Origin: a virus
Length of the DNA: 64,000 nt
Virus record (IMG/VR): IMGVR_UViG_3300045988_126669
Coordinates: 97,217-161,216 of that record
Direction: 5' to 3' (one strand)
Made by a program: the position numbers and the translations under genes. This document shows positions 4,331-60,410 of this stretch, in pieces. Below the pieces are notes generated by a model. That model saw only the letters and a program-made list of their open reading frames with translations. It was not told the origin of the DNA and made no database searches. Every line of letters starts with the position of its first letter. The first letter of the stretch is position 1.

Positions 4331-5227
4331 ATGAGAAAAATTGATTTAACAGGATAGAAATTCGGAAAGCTAACCGTATTATTTGAATAGCCTGAGAGGA
4401 AAAATTCAAAAATTGTTTGGCATTGTAAATGTGATTGTGGAAATGAATGCGATGTTGTAGGAAGTCAATTAACCAAAGCTGATCATCCTACTCGATCTTG
4501 TGGATGCCTACAAAAAGAAAAAACTCGATTGGCTAATCAGAGTGAAGATTTAACAGGATAGAAATTTGGACGTTTAACAGTAATTAAACGCCAAGAAAAT
4601 AGCTCTAAGTGGGAATGTTTATGTGAATGTGGTAATAAAGTTATTACTACCACTAATCATTTAAAAACAGGGCATACTCAATCTTGTGGATGTTTACAAA
4701 AAGATAGGGCTAGTGAAACTTCTTTTAGAAGTTTAGTAGGATAGAGATTCGGGTTATTGACCGTTCTTAATTTAAATATTGAAAAGTCAAATCCAAAATT
4801 AAAAATATATACTTGCAAATGTGATTGTGGGACTATAAAAGATTTTAATTCAAAAAATTTAATATCAGGCGATAGTCAAAGCTGTGGATGTTTAAGAATT
4901 TCTCATGGAGAACTAAAAATTAAAAATATTTTAGAAAGTTTTAACATTCCATTTGTTTAGGAAAAAACTTTTGATACTTGTAAAAATCCTGAAACTGGTA
5001 AATTATTAAGATTTGATTTTTATGTAGACAATAAGTATCTTATAGAGTATAATGGTAAACAACATTATGAACAAACTCATAATTGGGAACCAATAGAGAA
5101 TACTTAGTATAGAGATAATTTAAAAATTGAATGGGCTAAAAAAAATAATATTCCATTAATTATTATTCCTTATACAAAGTATGATACTCTAACAATAGAT
5201 GATTTATTATTATCATCTAATGAATAA
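4331..5227 (+). CDS. homing-endonuclease-like protein: three N-terminal Cys-rich repeats plus C-terminal DUF559/Vsr-like PD-(D/E)xK domain
   Basis: Three repeats of G(Q)KFG.LTV..W.C.CDCG....SCGC, then RFDFYV..YLIEYNGKQHY...NIPLIIIPY; six in-frame TAG; TAA stop. Confidence 0.7.
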
Positions 5228-5287
5228 TTTTGTTATTTGCTTATAATTTATAATTGTAAGTAAATATAATAAAACCCCTTTCGCAAG

Positions 5288-5328
5288 AAAGCCCTTTGAT
5301 TGACCGCAAAGGGCTTTCTTTATTTTTA
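5288..5328 (+). terminator. rho-independent terminator
   Basis: aaagccctttg / caaagggcttt stem plus T-run. Confidence 0.7.
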
Positions 5329-5392
5329 TAAAAAAATATAATATAATATATATATAAAGTTAAGAAAGGTATTAAAAAGAGGTTGATAAGAT

Positions 5393-6997
5393 ATGGCTAA
5401 TTTATTTGAGCTCCTTTCCAAAGAAGATTGCGAAAAGATTGAAGAGTATATTCGTAATTTTGCGGGCCTCGGCGGAGATAGTTCCGATATGAAGGCATCT
5501 CTTGACTATATTCTTCGCTTTTGGGCTTATAATAAGCAGAATCTTTATAAGATGTTGGGAGATAATCTTATCATTTCTCGTAAGGTAAGTTATTCTCGTT
5601 CTTATGAAGAGATGAGTGATGATTATTATGATTATTTCGGTCGAAATGGTGATGGATACGAATTCCGAGATATCTTTAATAATAAGTTAAGGGATCTTTA
5701 TCTCAGAACAACCATTTCTAATACTCAGTATTTTAATCTGGCAAATCTTTTGGATGTTGAGCCTTTAATGTCTAACATTTATGATGGTGAATCTTTTAAA
5801 TTCACTTATAATAATAAAACTCTTATGATTAATAAGGGCATGAAGCTTAGTAAAATGCTTGGTAAGCTGAGTGATATTTTGGAGATTGACCGCGATGTTT
5901 ATGAAAAGTTCCGTATCGCTCATTCTCAGTTTCTCAATCAGAAAAATATTTCTGGTGAACTCTGTCTTTCTGTTCATCCTCTTGATTATATCACTATGAG
6001 TGATAATAATTGCGGTTGGGATTCTTGTATGAGATGGCAGAATGGCGGTGGTGAGTATCGTCAGGGAACCGTTGAGATGATGAATTCTCCCATTATCCTT
6101 GAGGCTTATCTTAAATCTGATAAGGACATGGAAATTTGTTATAAGGTTGGTAAGCCTGTGATGTGGAACAGCAAGCGCTGGCGTGAACTTTTCATCGTAG
6201 ATGAAAGTCTTATCCTTGGTATCAAGGGTTATCCTTATTGTAATGATAACCTTGAAAGTATTTGTCTCGCTTGGATCAAGAAGCTCGCTGAACAGAATCT
6301 TGGCTTTGGTCCTTATACCAAGTATTTGAACCAAATTCACAATTACAGTAATAACATTATTGGTGAGCTTGATAGAAGTATTTACTTCAATCTTGATACC
6401 AATTTCATGTATAACGATATCTACTCAGACCATAACGCTTATGTTTCCACTAAGATTCCTACGGACGAAAACATTGATCTTAACTACTCGGGTGAATCTG
6501 AGTGTATGTGCTGTGGAGAGCTTTTTGATGATTCTCTCTTCGATGATAGAGAGAATAATGCGGAAATGACCATCTGCACGAGTTGTTCGGGTACAGTAAA
6601 GTGCGATAAGTGTGGCGATATTGCTTATATCGATGACACTTATAATGTCGATGGAAAAACTTATTGTGCTTATTGTTATGACGAAAGCACAGAAGTTTGT
6701 CCTTGTTGTGAAGTTCGTAAAGATTATGATGATATGAAGCAAATCCGTCTTCGATTCCAAAAGAAGCCAGTTGGATTCTATGCGGATATTTGTTGGGATT
6801 GTTGTGGAGATAAAAAAGTAAAAACCTTCTTCACTGGTGAAATTGAAGAAGAAAGAGACGGTTGGCGCTCTAATTATTATGTCGATGGAGAAACTCTCAC
6901 TGAAAAGGGCAGAGATCTCTTTGACATTAATGAAGAGGAATTTATTTCTTGGGTGAATGGCACTAACCCAAATCAAAGACCTTCTTTGATTTTTTAA
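5393..6997 (+). CDS. hypothetical protein with C-terminal Cys-rich zinc-ribbon tail (paralogue of 9505-10935)
   Basis: 534 aa; shares CLSVHPLDY...W.SC...GEYR.G with the 9505 protein; multiple CxxC pairs at the C-terminus. Confidence 0.6.
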   Translation: MANLFELLSKEDCEKIEEYIRNFAGLGGDSSDMKASLDYILRFWAYNKQNLYKMLGDNLIISRKVSYSRSYEEMSDDYYDYFGRNGDGYEFRDIFNNKLRDLYLRTTISNTQYFNLANLLDVEPLMSNIYDGESFKFTYNNKTLMINKGMKLSKMLGKLSDILEIDRDVYEKFRIAHSQFLNQKNISGELCLSVHPLDYITMSDNNCGWDSCMRWQNGGGEYRQGTVEMMNSPIILEAYLKSDKDMEICYKVGKPVMWNSKRWRELFIVDESLILGIKGYPYCNDNLESICLAWIKKLAEQNLGFGPYTKYLNQIHNYSNNIIGELDRSIYFNLDTNFMYNDIYSDHNAYVSTKIPTDENIDLNYSGESECMCCGELFDDSLFDDRENNAEMTICTSCSGTVKCDKCGDIAYIDDTYNVDGKTYCAYCYDESTEVCPCCEVRKDYDDMKQIRLRFQKKPVGFYADICWDCCGDKKVKTFFTGEIEEERDGWRSNYYVDGETLTEKGRDLFDINEEEFISWVNGTNPNQRPSLIF

Positions 6998-7014
6998 AAA
7001 AAATAATATATAAT
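6986..7014 (+). promoter_or_regulatory. sigma70-type promoter
   Basis: TTGATT-17-TATAAT. Confidence 0.6.
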
Positions 7015-7087
7015 ATTTATGTAAGGTAAAGGAAGAGATACTTCCTAAAAATAAAATTGTTATTTATGAAAGGTTAAGGTAAAAATT

Positions 7088-58889: not shown

Positions 58890-59165
58890 ATGTGTTATTC
58901 AATTATATTATCAAAATCGGCTAAGAAGTTTTATGATAAAGCCAATGAAAAAACTAAAAGAAATTTAGAAAGAACATTTTTAACCTTATCACCAGAAGTA
59001 GATGAAAAGGTTAAAAATGTTGATAGAAAACGCGATCAATCAAATACTTATCGCAGACGATTAGGCCATTATCGAGTTGTTTATCAAAAACAAGGAGATA
59101 TTCTTTTAATAACTCATTTGGATACAAAAACTAATTTTAAGTATAAAAAAACTGGCTGTTTTTAA
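58890..59165 (+). CDS. hypothetical protein
   Basis: 91-aa ORF. Confidence 0.45.
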   Translation: MCYSIILSKSAKKFYDKANEKTKRNLERTFLTLSPEVDEKVKNVDRKRDQSNTYRRRLGHYRVVYQKQGDILLITHLDTKTNFKYKKTGCF

Positions 59166-59170
59166 CTTTA

Positions 59171-59199
59171 TTGATTTTATATAAAAAATATAATATAAT
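59171..59199 (+). promoter_or_regulatory. sigma70-type promoter
   Basis: TTGATT-17-TATAAT. Confidence 0.55.
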
Positions 59200-59232
59200 A
59201 TTTATAGAAAGTTAAGAAAGGAAGAAAAAATT

Positions 59233-59592
59233 ATGCCAGGAAGGTCTAGAACAACTACTCGTCCAGAAGTTAATGCGGATTATAAGTTTAGAATTTTGGA
59301 TGTGTTAAATAACACAGATGATTCTATGACTCTTGATGAAATTCGTATGAATGATATGATTTTACGTCCATTGTCTAACCAGAAAATTAGTCGTTTAATT
59401 AGCGACCTTATTGATTTTGGTTTAGTCCAAAAGGGTAAATCTAAAAGTCTTGGTCGAATGATGTATAAAGCAACATCAAAAATGCGGGAGCAGGGGTATG
59501 AAGTTGATGACCCCGTAGATTTTGAGTATGGTTATGCTACTCAAAATTGGGAATTGGAAGAGGAAAAAAGAATTAAGTTAGAAACACTCTAA
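59233..59592 (+). CDS. hypothetical protein
   Basis: Promoter 59171-59199 plus AAGGAAG RBS. Confidence 0.5.
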   Translation: MPGRSRTTTRPEVNADYKFRILDVLNNTDDSMTLDEIRMNDMILRPLSNQKISRLISDLIDFGLVQKGKSKSLGRMMYKATSKMREQGYEVDDPVDFEYGYATQNWELEEEKRIKLETL

Positions 59593-59681
59593 TGTTTTTT
59601 TTAGGACAAAAGAGTGTAAGTTAATTAAAATATTTTTTATATAATAATGAAGAAAATAATTATTATATAAAGGAGAATTTT

Positions 59682-60410
59682 ATGCCTACTCTAAAATTAG
59701 AAAATAAAATATTTGGATACTGGAAAGTTTTACAAAAAGATGAAGAAGGATCTAAGGCTCATAAATAGTCTTATTGGGTTTGCGAATGTCAATTATGTGG
59801 AAAAATAAAATCTGTGCGTGGAAGCGCTTTAACAACAGGTAAAAGCACTAAATGTGATGATTGTAATAGACATAAAGTATTGGCGGATGAAGTTGGAAAA
59901 AAATATAATCATCTTTCTGTGAAATCTTATGTTGGAATAAAAAACAATAGAAAAATATGGTTATGTCAATGTGATTGTGGAAATTTTATAGAGGTTTCAA
60001 CCACTGATCTAAGAACTGGAGCTGTTCAAAGTTGTGGGAAATGTCCTGGGAAAGAAAGTTTTGGGGAAAACTGTATAAAAAACTTTCTTATAAATGGAAA
60101 AATAGATTTTATTCAAGAGTATTCATTTAAAGATTTTAAATATGAAAACGGCTATTTCCCTCGATTTGATTTCTATATCCCATCTCATAACTATATTATT
60201 GAATATGATGGAAAACAACATTTTGAATATTCAAATAATCCTTCTTCTTGGAATAATGAATATAATTTTTATCAAACTCAAAAAAATGATAAAATAAAAA
60301 ATAATTATTGTTTTTCTCATAATATTCCTATTATTCGAATTCCTTACAATAAATTAAATGAAATTACCATTTTTGATTTAATACCAGAAACAAGTAAATT
60401 TTTATTATAG
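59682..60410 (+). CDS. homing-endonuclease-like protein (two N-terminal repeats plus DUF559-like nuclease)
   Basis: KIWLCQCDCG...SCGKC; RFDFYIPSHNYIIEYDGKQHFEY...NIPIIRIPY; one TAG. Confidence 0.7.

Follow-up and report, generated by a model that had tools for sequence, protein, structure and literature searches.

T4 SegB and the tRNA-region endonucleases of phage T5 are freestanding genes within a phage tRNA cluster and bias inheritance towards the tRNA region of the genome that carries them. The I-Bth0305I or 'EDxHD' (Vsr-like) family comprises free-standing genes as well as genes associated with introns and inteins, and I-Bth0305I is bipartite, with repeated N-terminal NUMOD-2 helix-turn-helix motifs and a C-terminal nuclease (PMC3239194). 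In Agate phages, a group I intron endonuclease with recoded stop codons lies in an early standard-code gene and is predicted to be withheld until late infection (bioRxiv 10.1101/2021.08.26.457843). The T4 mobA/gene 60 system combines an endonuclease with a 50-nt frame-breaking insertion at its neighbour's invariant Gly/Asp codons (bioRxiv 10.1101/2022.08.31.505936).

The 64,000-nt stretch of viral DNA analysed here (the window) carries seven endonuclease genes that each recall part of these systems. Four resemble I-Bth0305I and the EDxHD family in their acidic and His residues (pattern D...E-x-D-G-x-x-H...D) and in a predicted bipartite layout of repeated N-terminal DNA-binding modules and C-terminal nuclease, but their repeats are Cys-rich zinc modules and the genes are freestanding, not intron-borne. 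The other three stand among tRNA genes, as do SegB and the T5 genes; unlike SegB, which is a GIY-YIG enzyme, they are HNH genes, each placed just before a single tRNA gene whose sequence is not that of the empty allele. As in Agate phages, genes with recoded stops lie amid early-type standard-code genes, although there TGA stands for Trp in an intron-borne gene, and here TAG apparently stands for Gln, in HNH and Vsr-type genes alike, all seven of them freestanding. One junction, between gene 6 and a phosphoesterase gene, shares with mobA/gene 60 the endonuclease, the frame-breaking insertion at invariant Gly/Asp codons of a neighbour and the Gly codon directly before UAG; the insertion is 4 nt, however, and the matched landing codon, take-off stem-loop and nascent-peptide signal of gene 60 have no counterpart here. 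Gene 60 holds a bypass cassette; ribosome passage at this junction is hypothetical.

Cultured Firmicutes phages have 'homing endonuclease' genes with the whole architecture of the four Vsr-type genes, a zinc finger joined to DUF2726/VSR (PHROG 374, 559 and 9084); named carriers are Staphylococcus phiIBB-SEP1, Bacillus Eldridge and Bobb, Lactobacillus phig1e (Rorf232) and Enterococcus phage 113; unlike these, the copies here carry in-frame TAG. A tblastn search gave matches in 463 phage records, with 25–44% identity among the matches listed. Many database relatives are labelled 'HNH endonuclease', though the nuclease domain is not HNH.

Taken jointly, we consider the following explanation highly probable: the seven genes are active or recently active freestanding homing endonuclease cassettes, as judged from sequence comparison; four of them fuse two or three treble-clef-like, DNA-binding zinc modules to a Vsr/EDxHD-type PD-(D/E)xK nuclease; and their host genome is a phage of roughly 160–196 kb in which TAG is glutamine late in infection.

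Seven endonuclease genes containing TAG codons

The seven ORFs were recovered at or near the positions given in the initial annotation, but only with TAG translated as sense, on which the coordinates and lengths below are based.

4331..5227, + strand: endonuclease gene 1; 298 aa, 6 TAG; three Cys-rich zinc modules and a Vsr-like nuclease domain
14922..15407, + strand: endonuclease gene 2; 161 aa, 3 TAG; HNH, without a zinc module
22381..22977, + strand: endonuclease gene 3; 198 aa, 5 TAG; one zinc module, zinc ribbon, HNH domain
46361..46903, + strand: endonuclease gene 4; 180 aa, 2 TAG; one zinc module, zinc ribbon, HNH domain
50679..51404, + strand: endonuclease gene 5; 241 aa, 2 TAG; two zinc modules and a Vsr-like nuclease domain
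57312..58103, + strand: endonuclease gene 6; 263 aa, 5 TAG; two zinc modules and a Vsr-like nuclease domain
59682..60425, + strand: endonuclease gene 7; 247 aa, 2 TAG; two zinc modules and a Vsr-like nuclease domain

A phmmer search of the seven proteins against the six-frame translation (E<1e-3) matched these seven and no eighth family member. By phmmer, the zinc module occurs three times in gene 1, twice each in genes 5, 6 and 7, once each in genes 3 and 4, and not in gene 2. The N-terminal repeats that the initial annotation had seen in the Vsr-type genes are thus present, with a range of two to three copies rather than one to three, and two HNH genes carry the repeat as it had described. 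Since the same module occurs with both HNH and Vsr-type domains, it appears to have been shuffled between nuclease types.

All seven genes matched PHROG families annotated as HNH, homing or intron-encoded endonucleases (1e-19 to 1e-56), among them phrog_374 (1e-52) and phrog_9084, 'homing endonuclease' (1.5e-22), for gene 1, phrog_10822 (6.6e-56) for gene 2 and phrog_2255 (7.4e-27, residues 36–179) for gene 4. The Pfam HNH profile scored barely above its gathering score for genes 2 and 3 (gene 2, 21.8 bits against a cut-off of 21.4). Pfam DUF2726 was reported for three of the four Vsr-type genes, each time under its cut-off, and not at all for gene 1; sequence searches gave no link of the Vsr-type domain to I-Bth0305I or Vsr, and the solved chain of I-Bth0305I had no detectable sequence similarity to it. 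The AlphaFold2 model of P0001, a protein 94% identical to that of gene 5, has a pLDDT of 89, and Foldseek matched viral models with E down to 8e-21 under the names homing endonuclease, group I intron-associated VSR homing endonuclease, DUF2726 and treble clef zinc finger. Seven residues (D166, E180, D182, G183, R202, D203, K206) never vary among 41 homologues, of which at least 90% also retain H186. The C-terminal domain of the four genes, proposed in the initial annotation to be REase-like, is Vsr/DUF559-like by fold, and its overall description of freestanding homing endonuclease genes of two nuclease types with a zinc-binding N-terminal module in common is supported.

A +1 frameshift in an A-run had also been claimed for gene 4. 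It is absent: from the ATG at 46361–46363 the reading frame continues unbroken across the A-run (...ITKKKKNCPICNK...) as far as TAA at 46901–46903, and the phrog_2255 HNH profile crosses the claimed point in one stretch. The claim arose because the start was mis-registered by one base, and the continuous ORF rules out a frameshifted copy.

The seven genes contain 25 in-frame TAG in 1588 codons. Locally TAG is confined to them, the flanking early-type genes being TAG-free, and a standard-code ORF list contains none of the seven whole, only fragments. The conserved Gln in GQKFG, CQC and DGEQH aligns with TAG, and TAG and CAA are exchanged between orthologous copies at codon 185 of gene 5 and codon 102 of gene 6. 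Outside the endonuclease genes, the annotated genes that bear TAG are tail-fibre-like and endolysin-like. The initial annotation is silent on TAG as Gln, though its motif 'G(Q)KFG' suggests that this was seen, and it offers no reason for TAG occurring only in endonuclease genes among TAG-free neighbours. The window also encodes a potential suppressor:

26165..26254, + strand: tRNA with anticodon CUA (amber suppressor); 90 nt, long variable arm

This tRNA is likely the means by which all seven genes are translated; its class-II long variable arm, unlike tRNA-Gln, speaks against tRNA-Gln identity. The in-frame TAG codons should hold the endonucleases untranslated until the suppressor is active, which presupposes a standard-code host and late expression of the suppressor.

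Cassettes at gene boundaries

Comparison with relatives, which the initial annotation had proposed, revealed that all seven genes are presence/absence polymorphisms among related phage contigs of 113–196 kb. The flanks of the relatives are mostly 85–98% identical at the seven sites and diverge sharply at the cassette edges, and some genomes hold other endonucleases at the same sites (a GIY-YIG gene at one site, a different Vsr-type gene at another). The relatives carry further copies of the family at other loci. At five sites pN/pS is about 0–0.23, and 0.06–0.18 where divergence is substantial. It is because of the presence/absence pattern, the sharp edges, the alternative endonucleases and the low pN/pS (about 0–0.2) that we regard the cassettes as probably active or recently so. 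The GC content of the endonuclease genes is 0.25–0.30, compared with 0.26–0.43 for flanking genes (0.32–0.43 for all but 45945–46256).

Three cassettes lie at 3' ends of protein genes.

4057..5253, + strand: variable cassette 1; diverged 3' end of the upstream gene (2884–4242), hairpin, endonuclease gene 1
4267..4321, + strand: perfect 19-bp hairpin; 3' arm overlaps the gene 1 Shine-Dalgarno (GAGGAG)
50467..50572, + strand: Ro/TROVE-like gene 3' end, sharply diverged from alleles without the endonuclease; part of cassette 5 (50467–51395)

Gene 1 is missing in all eight relatives that cover the site, and the original end of gene 2884–4242, TTGTAAGTAA, survives at 5254; the hairpin has a folding energy of −34.9 kcal/mol (z = −8.07), and none of 200 shuffles folds as well. 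Gene 5 takes its final codons and stop (ATT AAG TAA) from the original 3' terminus of the upstream Ro/TROVE-like gene. Gene 5 is present in L002, L003 and L006; the site is empty in L008, L009 and L010, and is occupied in L001, L004, L005 and L007 by 518 nt, with a 129-aa ORF in L001 and L004. Gene 7 (cassette 59578–60407) is present in L004 and L011 and missing in eight relatives, with a different Vsr-type gene at the site in L006. It encodes 242 aa if its last TAG (60408) is a stop; if that codon is read, the ORF extends through QKESV*, which is what is left of the 3' end of the upstream gene.

The HNH genes 2, 3 and 4 lie directly 5' of tRNA-Trp-like, tRNA-Ile and tRNA-Cys genes, respectively.

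15393..15475, + strand: tRNA-Trp(CCA)-like sequence; 5' end overlaps the end of gene 2
22985..23060, + strand: tRNA-Ile(UAU), directly 3' of gene 3, in variable segment 22285–23053
46272..46285, + strand: remnant of tRNA-Cys (first 14 nt), left of gene 4; sequence as in the empty allele
46915..46991, + strand: complete tRNA-Cys(GCA), right of gene 4; D-arm differs from the empty allele

Gene 2 is present in L020 and absent from L021, and in L014 a GIY-YIG gene adjoins the tRNA-Trp gene instead. The tRNA-Trp(CCA)-like sequence gave no tRNA call (best match 17.6 bits, tRNA-Sec model, E 0.33); empty alleles have a normal tRNA-Trp. Gene 3 is present only in L023 and missing in eight relatives, where empty alleles have a different tRNA. 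Gene 4 is missing in L003, L004, L005 and L007.

Each cassette occupies a gene boundary, namely the 3' end of a protein gene (genes 1, 5 and 7), the 5' end of the phosphoesterase gene (gene 6) or the 5' end of a tRNA gene (genes 2, 3 and 4), and carries its own diverged copy of the adjoining gene segment. We propose that in a mixed infection the enzyme would cut the endonuclease-free allele within that segment, repair would copy the cassette across, and the carrier genome would be shielded from its own enzyme by the variant segment. Predicted target positions are the points where homology breaks. For gene 6, the protective change would include a 4-nt insertion inside the invariant Gly-Asp codons of motif I.

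The phosphoesterase junction

Cassette 6 (57232–58130) adjoins a metallophosphoesterase gene.

57221..57265, + strand: phosphoesterase 5' end, degenerate left-hand copy, MELITGDKTLVARY*; from comparison with empty alleles
58100..58130, + strand: phosphoesterase 5' end, right-hand copy; GTG 58100 overlaps the endonuclease stop (GTGA); nine codons MIKHYFITG, then TAG 58127–58129
58131..58880, + strand: metallophosphoesterase body, motif I (DTHG) to stop; Metallophos 2.8e-10

Divergence of the cassette is far below that of its downstream flank (1.3% versus about 25% in L044; 0.4% versus 6.3% in L003), and pN/pS among gene 6 copies is 0–0.23 (0.06–0.12 for well-diverged pairs). As noted in the initial annotation, the phosphoesterase frame opens straight after the endonuclease stops TGA TAA, and motif I (SDTHG, D at 58131) lies upstream of the first ATG, GTG or TTG in frame; the body is in the same frame as gene 6, and its first canonical start is GTG 58146, past motif I. 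That annotation's choice between a replaced native start and an ATT start stands only in its second half, as a possibility. The empty allele begins ATG GGA TTG ATT AAA AAG TTC TTT TTG ACT GGC GAT ACT CAT GGA (MGLIKKFFLTGDTHG), and the occupied allele keeps a homologous start, GTG ATA AAA CAT TAT TTT ATC ACA GGT (MIKHYFITG), after which the insertion GG[TTAG]CGAT places motif I in the +1 frame. A 9-bp hairpin spans 58100–58122. Because the insertion falls in the motif I codons, full-length enzyme could be made only by a +1 shift at GGU-UAG-C or from a non-canonical start; failing both, the phosphoesterase gene is crippled.

Alternative readings

If the TAG codons were true stops, the seven ORFs would be fragmented pseudogenes, relics of old invasions with no full-length protein. 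The fragments in the standard-code list fit this, gene callers split these genes on related contigs too, and L014 has two adjacent fragments matching gene 5 that resemble a frameshifted copy. We nevertheless find pseudogenes very improbable: pN/pS is low (about 0–0.23) across whole ORFs, which lie almost entirely beyond their first TAG. Positions of invariant Gln are occupied by TAG, CAA takes its place in some copies, the tail-fibre and lysis genes likewise contain it, and a tRNA(CUA) is encoded. If the genes were instead carried by inteins or by self-splicing introns of group I or II, splicing would restore the phosphoesterase. Such a location would accord with the intron-protein annotation of relatives in Lactobacillus phage LpeD and Enterococcus phage 113, with the phiIBB-SEP1 match under an annotated terminase large subunit feature, and with the short phosphoesterase 5'-end pieces on both sides of gene 6. 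It is hardly credible given that no intron family reached the Rfam gathering score across the whole window, and that the insertions lie at gene ends and leave adjoining genes complete without splicing. Within cassette 6, about 80 nt on the left and about 27 nt on the right are too short for an intron core, and no junction was found that both ends on U, as group I introns need, and restores the frame through motif I; the single in-frame junction read from the sequence, MELITGDTHG, ends on G.

The fate of the phosphoesterase may be read in three ways. The cassette may have inactivated or truncated it, so that GTG 58100 yields only a 24-codon peptide or GTG 58146 only a protein lacking motif I; the selfish element would spread despite this cost since in many hosts the RNA-repair module is not needed. 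We favour this tentatively, as close to an even call. No canonical start precedes motif I in frame, related occupied genes (P0124, P0128) are called as starting at MAERLE..., and the occupied allele L045 has lost one more nucleotide here, a second lesion that breaks the motif I frame. The body is, however, intact in seven of eight occupied alleles, L045 excepted (L055 and L096 were read directly at the junction only), dN/dS between occupied alleles is 0.05–0.09, and cassette copies are up to pS 0.27 apart, so the junction arrangement is not very young; the intact, selected look of the body would then be due to repeated transfer of the cassette into fresh backgrounds. AUU starts occur in bacteria, for example in infC, and a start in the body's own frame at ATT 58110 or 58113, perhaps by re-initiation after endonuclease termination, is possible but doubtful. 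The frame opens two codons past the endonuclease stop and reads NIILSQVSDTHG, which could plausibly form a hydrophobic strand ahead of motif I, but a T-rich stretch gives hydrophobic residues in any frame, no Shine-Dalgarno lies at a usable distance (the nearest GGAG is 20 nt 5' of the first ATT), and the overlapping GTG, a far better re-initiation codon, leads into another frame. An unlikely reading is a programmed event, in which translation from GTG 58100, coupled to endonuclease termination, would shift +1 at GGU-UAG-C, the UAG being slow before the suppressor appears, and yield MIKHYFITG-SDTHG..., a small-scale analogue of T4 mobA/gene 60. The GTGA overlap with AAGGAG 10 nt 5' favours it, as do the family-like nine codons (MIKHYFITG, compared with MIKHYLLTG in L169 and MIKNFLITG in P0133), of which six differ from L169 (three synonymous, one start swap TTG to GTG, two conservative). 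Take-off in gene 60 likewise has UAG directly after a Gly codon for an invariant residue (bioRxiv 10.1101/2022.08.31.505936), and private nonsynonymous changes are not in excess in occupied lineages (8N/15S versus 12N/30S, p = 0.78), a comparison of low power. Eight occupied alleles have an identical insertion despite cassette differences of up to 7.4%, but since all derive from one cassette this conservation is not independent evidence. Against the shift, tRNA-Gly would re-pair poorly (GGU to GUU), no matched landing codon preserves motif I, the tRNAs seen in the window include none with an 8-nt anticodon loop, and the L045 deletion kills the frame.

Scattered selfish nuclease genes that are variably present in close relatives are ordinary phage biology; the exception here is the phosphoesterase out of frame.

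Recoding of the seven endonuclease genes

The window (GC ~0.35) resembles part of a large phage genome, with every convincing gene on the + strand and with 25 tRNA genes called by ARAGORN and a further 3 from Rfam. None of the seven endonuclease genes is whole in its standard-code ORF list, because an in-frame TAG stands where paralogues have Gln: the internal stops in all seven are TAG only, and they fall at Gln positions of the paralogues (for example, G[TAG]KFG against GQKFG). Translation with TAG as sense gave seven intact ORFs of 161-298 aa, and a phmmer search of these proteins against the six-frame translation of the window returned exactly those seven.

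Endonuclease genes of the window, named by start position, with the copies of the shared zinc module found by phmmer
4331, + strand: Vsr-type gene, three module copies
14922, + strand: HNH gene, no module copy
22381, + strand: HNH gene, one module copy
46361 (to 46903), + strand: HNH gene, one module copy
50679, + strand: Vsr-type gene, two module copies
57312 (cassette 57232-58130), + strand: Vsr-type gene, two module copies
59682, + strand: Vsr-type gene, two module copies

Alignments indicate that TAG is Gln in this phage. Both TAGs of 50679 align with consensus Gln among 42 sequences, one of them at the nearly invariant Q of DGEQH. Codon 185 of 50679 is TAG in the window and CAA in the orthologous copies of relatives, and codon 102 of 57312 is TAG in the window and CAA in the related contig L001. 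The window encodes a CUA-anticodon tRNA (26165-26254) of 90 nt whose variable arm is long, as in Ser, Leu or Tyr tRNAs, even though Gln is the residue indicated by the alignments. Quadruplet decoding of UAGC was considered and rejected, as the anticodon loop of tRNA(CUA) is a normal one of 7 nt and that of the lone odd tRNA (14733-14803) has 6 nt, not 8. ARAGORN gives this odd tRNA (46 bits with Rfam) a two-base 'anticodon' (tc), and the same odd tRNA, with 'tt', is found in the relatives L021 and L014.

Apart from the endonuclease genes, TAG is found chiefly in blocks at 11.4-14.7 kb and 23-45 kb, whose annotatable genes resemble those for tail fibres or endolysins; it is lacking from the genes for the ATPase, methyltransferase, Ro/TROVE-like protein, nucleotidyltransferase, phosphoesterase and RNA ligase. 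This distribution agrees with the published picture, in which the late genes of recoded phages stay in the alternative code (bioRxiv 10.1101/2021.08.26.457843). The density of TAG is 25 in 1588 endonuclease codons versus 47 in 14,905 codons elsewhere. Because the endonuclease genes hold many TAG codons, their translation should be limited to the time when the suppressor is active; the same timing has been proposed for the recoded intron endonuclease of Agate phages (bioRxiv 10.1101/2021.08.26.457843). At 47-64 kb, ORF 55632-55961 is the only TAG-containing gene besides those for endonucleases. Three paralogous Gly-rich proteins (11944-14654 and 39893-41494), with the N-terminus ...GDILNCPYSGTYK...LECWGAQGG in common and TAG in all three genes, are probably virion fibre proteins; the one at 13320-14654 is phrog_1589-like.

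The initial annotation had placed a frameshift in an A-run within 46360-46903. None is present: the sequence at 46360 is t-ATG, and a single frame from ATG 46361 to TAA 46901-46903 encodes the HNH domain as well as the zinc module and a further zinc ribbon. The A-run encodes ...ITKKKKNCPICNK..., and one PHROG profile aligns through it; the frameshift had arisen because the start was taken one base early.

Zinc modules and nuclease domains

PHROG matches of all seven proteins (1e-19 to 1e-56) are to families described as HNH, homing or intron-encoded endonuclease. The module shared by all but 14922 reads G-x-K/R-F-G-x-L-T-V...W-x-C-x-C-x-C-G...S-C-G-C. With the Pfam HNH models (PF01844 / PF13392; cut-off 21.4), 14922 scored 21.8 and 22381 scored 21.7 bits. 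The third HNH gene, 46361, falls under its Pfam HNH cut-off (13.7 vs 23); its matches to HNH families of PHROG reach 7e-27 and 1e-19, and it carries the motif CEIC...HH...N...CANCH (CxxC...HH...N...CxxCH). By these profiles and motifs, all three are assigned to the HNH endonucleases.

A structure model was made of P0001, a homologue 94% identical to 50679 that stood in for the window protein (mean pLDDT 89). On this model, the C-terminal domain of the Vsr-type genes is a Vsr-type variant of the PD-(D/E)xK fold, and the model and the conserved residues bear out, at fold level, the earlier call of a DUF559/Vsr-like PD-(D/E)xK domain. Residues D166, E180, D182, G183, R202, D203 and K206 are invariant among 41 homologues and H186 is kept in at least 90%; their match to Vsr D51/H69/D97 is by pattern only. 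The motif RFDF/RYDF...E-x-(D/N)-G-x-Q-H is present in all four Vsr-type window proteins, with N in 4331 (IEYNG) at the position where the other three have D. Database homologues of 50679 number >6,800 at E <= 1e-5, and the best 120 of these are identical in length, with at least 98% query coverage.

Pfam DUF2726 (PF10881, gathering cut-off 24.7) reached 17.5-19.9 bits for 50679, 57312 and 59682 and did not match 4331; a precomputed PF10881 match is present in some close homologues. NCBIfam gave no family for the Vsr-type genes, and weak sub-threshold HNH-related matches for two HNH genes. Neither phmmer nor the 41-sequence profile, run against all PDB chain sequences, matched 3r3p or Vsr at E up to 10, and the link to solved structures is at fold level only. 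The homing endonuclease I-Bth0305I (EDxHD) is described with two N-terminal NUMOD-2 helix-turn-helix repeats (PMC3239194), whereas the N-terminal repeats here are beta-rich Cys modules in both sequence and model; Pfam gave no NUMOD match. The zinc-module DNA-binding unit is combined with two unrelated nuclease folds.

By tblastn, the same architecture was found in 463 cultured-phage records, mostly Staphylococcus, Enterococcus, Streptococcus and Bacillus phages, whose copies are often labelled 'HNH endonuclease'. Foldseek against viral models returned 'homing endonuclease', 'group I intron-associated VSR homing endonuclease', 'DUF2726' and 'treble clef zinc finger'. The seven genes are new members of families already described, and the recoded phage is likewise of a known kind.

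Distribution, transfer and insertion sites

Three IMG/VR scans with neighbouring proteins yielded ~15 related contigs (L-numbers) of up to 196 kb, with flanks mostly 85-98% identical to the window; among cultured phages, no close relative was found at the DNA level. In BLAST comparisons of the window with these relatives, each endonuclease gene is a clean indel, at 7/7 sites.

Presence and absence of each endonuclease gene at its site
4331: present in none; absent from 8/8 genomes covering the site
14922: present in L020; absent from L021; in L014, a GIY-YIG endonuclease gene (20350-21141) adjoins the tRNA-Trp gene
22381: present in L023; absent from 8
46361: present in none; absent from L003, L004, L005, L007
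50679: present in L002, L003, L006; empty in L008-L010; 518 nt of other sequence in L001, L004, L005, L007
57312: present in L001, L003, L006, the Logan contigs L044 and L045, and the metagenome contigs L055 and L096; absent from 7
59682: present in L004, L011; absent from 8; in L006, a different two-module Vsr-type endonuclease gene (11516-12295) in the same place, before the RNA ligase gene

The 518-nt replacement at the 50679 site is a 129-aa ORF in L001 and L004, and the 5' end of the RNA ligase gene also differs in L006. Further family copies lie at other places in the relatives; at 15598-16361 of L014, two adjacent ORF fragments match 50679 and look like a genuinely frameshifted copy.

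Between orthologous copies, with TAG as sense, pN/pS was 0-0.23 for 57312 (0.06-0.12 for well-diverged pairs) and about 0.11-0.18 for 50679 and 59682; 14922 and 22381 had zero nonsynonymous changes. The GC content of the endonuclease genes is 0.25-0.30, versus 0.32-0.43 in all flanking genes but one. Cassette and flank divergence were compared for cassette 57312 only: against L044 the cassette is 1.3% diverged and the 700 nt downstream ~25%, against L045 the values are 0.7% and 15.5%, and against L003 0.4% and 6.3%. Against L001 the cassette (7.4%) is as diverged as its flanks (5.7%), and this pair therefore gives no sign of recent transfer. The window phosphoesterase body is closest to that of an empty allele, L002 (dS 0.065). 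The low-divergence pairs are consistent with the prediction of repeated horizontal transfer by homing.

That the seven are freestanding homing endonuclease genes, encoding predicted nucleases, is well supported by their presence or absence at fixed sites (7/7), as the initial annotation had proposed; its overall observation is largely correct once TAG recoding is recognised, the frameshift being its error. The genes lie outside introns or inteins, as insertions at gene boundaries with complete neighbouring genes, and a whole-window Rfam scan at gathering score for introns returned only tRNAs and one RAGATH-33 RNA. The latter is a full-length match at 44093-44221 (126.8 bits vs a gathering score of 120.4).

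Each cassette swaps the end of an adjacent gene or tRNA for a variant copy. At 4331, 50679 and 59682, insertion is within the final few codons of the gene upstream, which receives a new and strongly diverged 3' end from the cassette. The original end persists as TTGTAAGTAA at 5254, right of 4331; as ATT AAG TAA, the last codons of 50679; and as AAA GAA AGT GTT TAA after TAG 60408 at the 59682 site. Left of 46361 stand the first 14 nt of tRNA-Cys in the empty-allele version, and after the gene a complete tRNA-Cys with a D-arm unlike that of the empty allele. The gene 22381 and a tRNA-Ile(UAU) stand in for a segment with a different tRNA in empty genomes. In L020, which lacks this gene, 11995-12147 contains a 70-nt AT-rich tRNA, apparently with a 9-nt anticodon loop; it is flanked by an apparent 3' half of a second tRNA, with the shared ...CCCTACCA at its end. 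At 14922, the normal tRNA-Trp of empty genomes is replaced by the endonuclease gene and a tRNA-Trp-like sequence with a CCA anticodon and a T-loop. This sequence was rejected as a normal tRNA-Trp: ARAGORN and Infernal leave it uncalled, and its fold energy is no better than that of shuffles. The replaced segments would contain the putative cleavage sites, and the variant copies would confer self-immunity.

A TATATAAT element precedes a strong Shine-Dalgarno sequence by 25-40 nt in four cassettes and occurs 27 times in the window; a perfect 19-bp hairpin before 4331 covers the Shine-Dalgarno sequence (z = -8).

Three of the seven genes lie in an RNA-repair-like cluster (49004-61803) with a Ro/TROVE-like RNA-binding protein (phrog_850, 3e-137), a nucleotidyltransferase, the metallophosphoesterase, an RNA ligase (phrog_968, 1.5e-64) and an 832-aa protein without family match, for which an exact database look-up gave no record. 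The block 46289-49041, missing in L003, L005 and L007 and partly in L004, contains 46361, tRNA-Cys, a 203-aa ORF (47133-47744) and a DNA methyltransferase-like gene (47737-48915), and may be a restriction-modification-type insertion. Small-gene indels were seen at 54719-55778 (vs L003), 54774-55094 (vs L006/L007/L008) and 55660-55894 (vs L008), and the TAG-containing ORF 55632-55961 is among the ORFs they involve.

The phosphoesterase junction

The cassette of 57312 adjoins the metallophosphoesterase gene.
58131-58880, + strand: phosphoesterase body

Seven empty alleles read ...GAAGGGAGAGAATGGGATTGATTAAAAAGTTCTTTTTGACTGGCGATACTCATGGA; in them a small upstream zinc-ribbon gene ends within the phosphoesterase start, which opens MGLIKKFFLTGDTHG. 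In the window and seven other occupied alleles, the left junction (57221-57265) is ATG GAA TTG ATA ACA GGA GAC AAA ACT TTG GTC GCC CGT TAT TAA, by its sequence a decayed copy of the phosphoesterase 5' end, and the right junction is AAAGGAGATGATGAGTCGTGATAAAACATTATTTTATCACAGGTTAGCGATACTCATGG. There, GTG 58100 overlaps the endonuclease stop (GTGA), 10 nt after AAGGAG, and opens MIKHYFITG. On comparison with MIKHYLLTGDTHS in L169, a more distant empty allele (DNA at the start, TTGATTAAACATTATTTACTCACTGGCGACACTCAC), this peptide is clearly a homologue of the N-terminus of the family. The occupied alleles differ from every empty one by four extra bases, GG[TTAG]CGAT, placed where motif I has its invariant Gly-Asp codons. 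Because of these four bases, motif I and the remaining gene lie in the +1 frame, which is the endonuclease's own frame, two stop codons past its end. Compared with L169, the first 23 nt now form a perfect 9-bp hairpin, GTGATAAAA/TTTTATCAC, in which one T-A to A-T exchange keeps the pair. Within this hairpin (58100-58122, GTGATAAAA-CATTA-TTTTATCAC) lie both the stop of the endonuclease gene and the GTG at which the phosphoesterase remnant starts; L169 has just 6/9 of the hairpin's pairs. A metagenome scan with the 17-mer CATTATTTTATCACAGG was too unspecific (at least 120 stretches, with 2 real occupied alleles among the matches listed), and a viral-contig scan with a longer 21-mer returned three already known contigs only.

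Inactivation or truncation of the phosphoesterase is the most likely single outcome, and we hold it tentatively. In its favour, L045 has an apparent further 1-nt deletion right after DTHG, at about 1160-1175 of the contig sequence (CATGGTAAGTGG vs CATGGTAAAGTGG in L044), by which motif I would be lost from any frame continuing into the gene. Apart from this lesion, the body is intact in the occupied alleles examined, and dN/dS is 0.05-0.09 among the four alleles from IMG/VR and the window; neither is evidence of function, because the cassette keeps entering fresh backgrounds. For the same reason, two tests for relaxed selection in occupied genomes are uninformative: pairwise dN/dS was the same for occupied and empty alleles, and private substitutions did not differ (p = 0.78, in a test without power). 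A non-canonical ATT start, as raised in the initial annotation, would have no Shine-Dalgarno sequence within 12 nt.

Production of the full enzyme by a +1 shift at GGU-UAG-C recalls the mobA/gene 60 cassette of T4. The homing endonuclease of that cassette is accompanied by an insert that breaks the frame at invariant Gly/Asp codons, and UAG comes after the Gly codon used for take-off (bioRxiv 10.1101/2022.08.31.505936). Similarly, the G-D of motif I contains GGT 58124-58126 followed by TAG 58127-58129, 21 nt downstream of the endonuclease stop. However, tRNA-Gly would re-pair badly, and both the landing codon and the take-off stem-loop are missing: unlike in T4 gene 60, no GGN codon is placed for reading to resume at AGC or GAT, and the only strong hairpin (58100-58122) stops before the GGT codon. 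We consider it improbable that cassette 57312 is a second, independent case of the mobA/gene 60 principle, with a self-protective frame-breaking insert and an enzyme made by +1 recoding and switched by UAG. If it were, the endonuclease would protect its own genome through the insertion in the invariant Gly-Asp codons of its target gene, and the phosphoesterase would still be made through recoding at GGU-UAG-C. Since UAG would be a slow stop in early infection and be read as Gln later on, the arrival of the suppressor tRNA would shut down phosphoesterase synthesis.

The junction is the sole part that could yield novelty, as either a selfish element damaging its host gene or a small recoding site. 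Standard-code gene calling overlooks all seven genes, and the Vsr-type ones are widely mislabelled HNH in databases. Together with their empty alleles, the seven cassettes form a natural experiment on the non-lethal entry of selfish nucleases into a phage genome, and they lead to the prediction that recoded stop codons would set when selfish elements, and not only lysis genes, are expressed.
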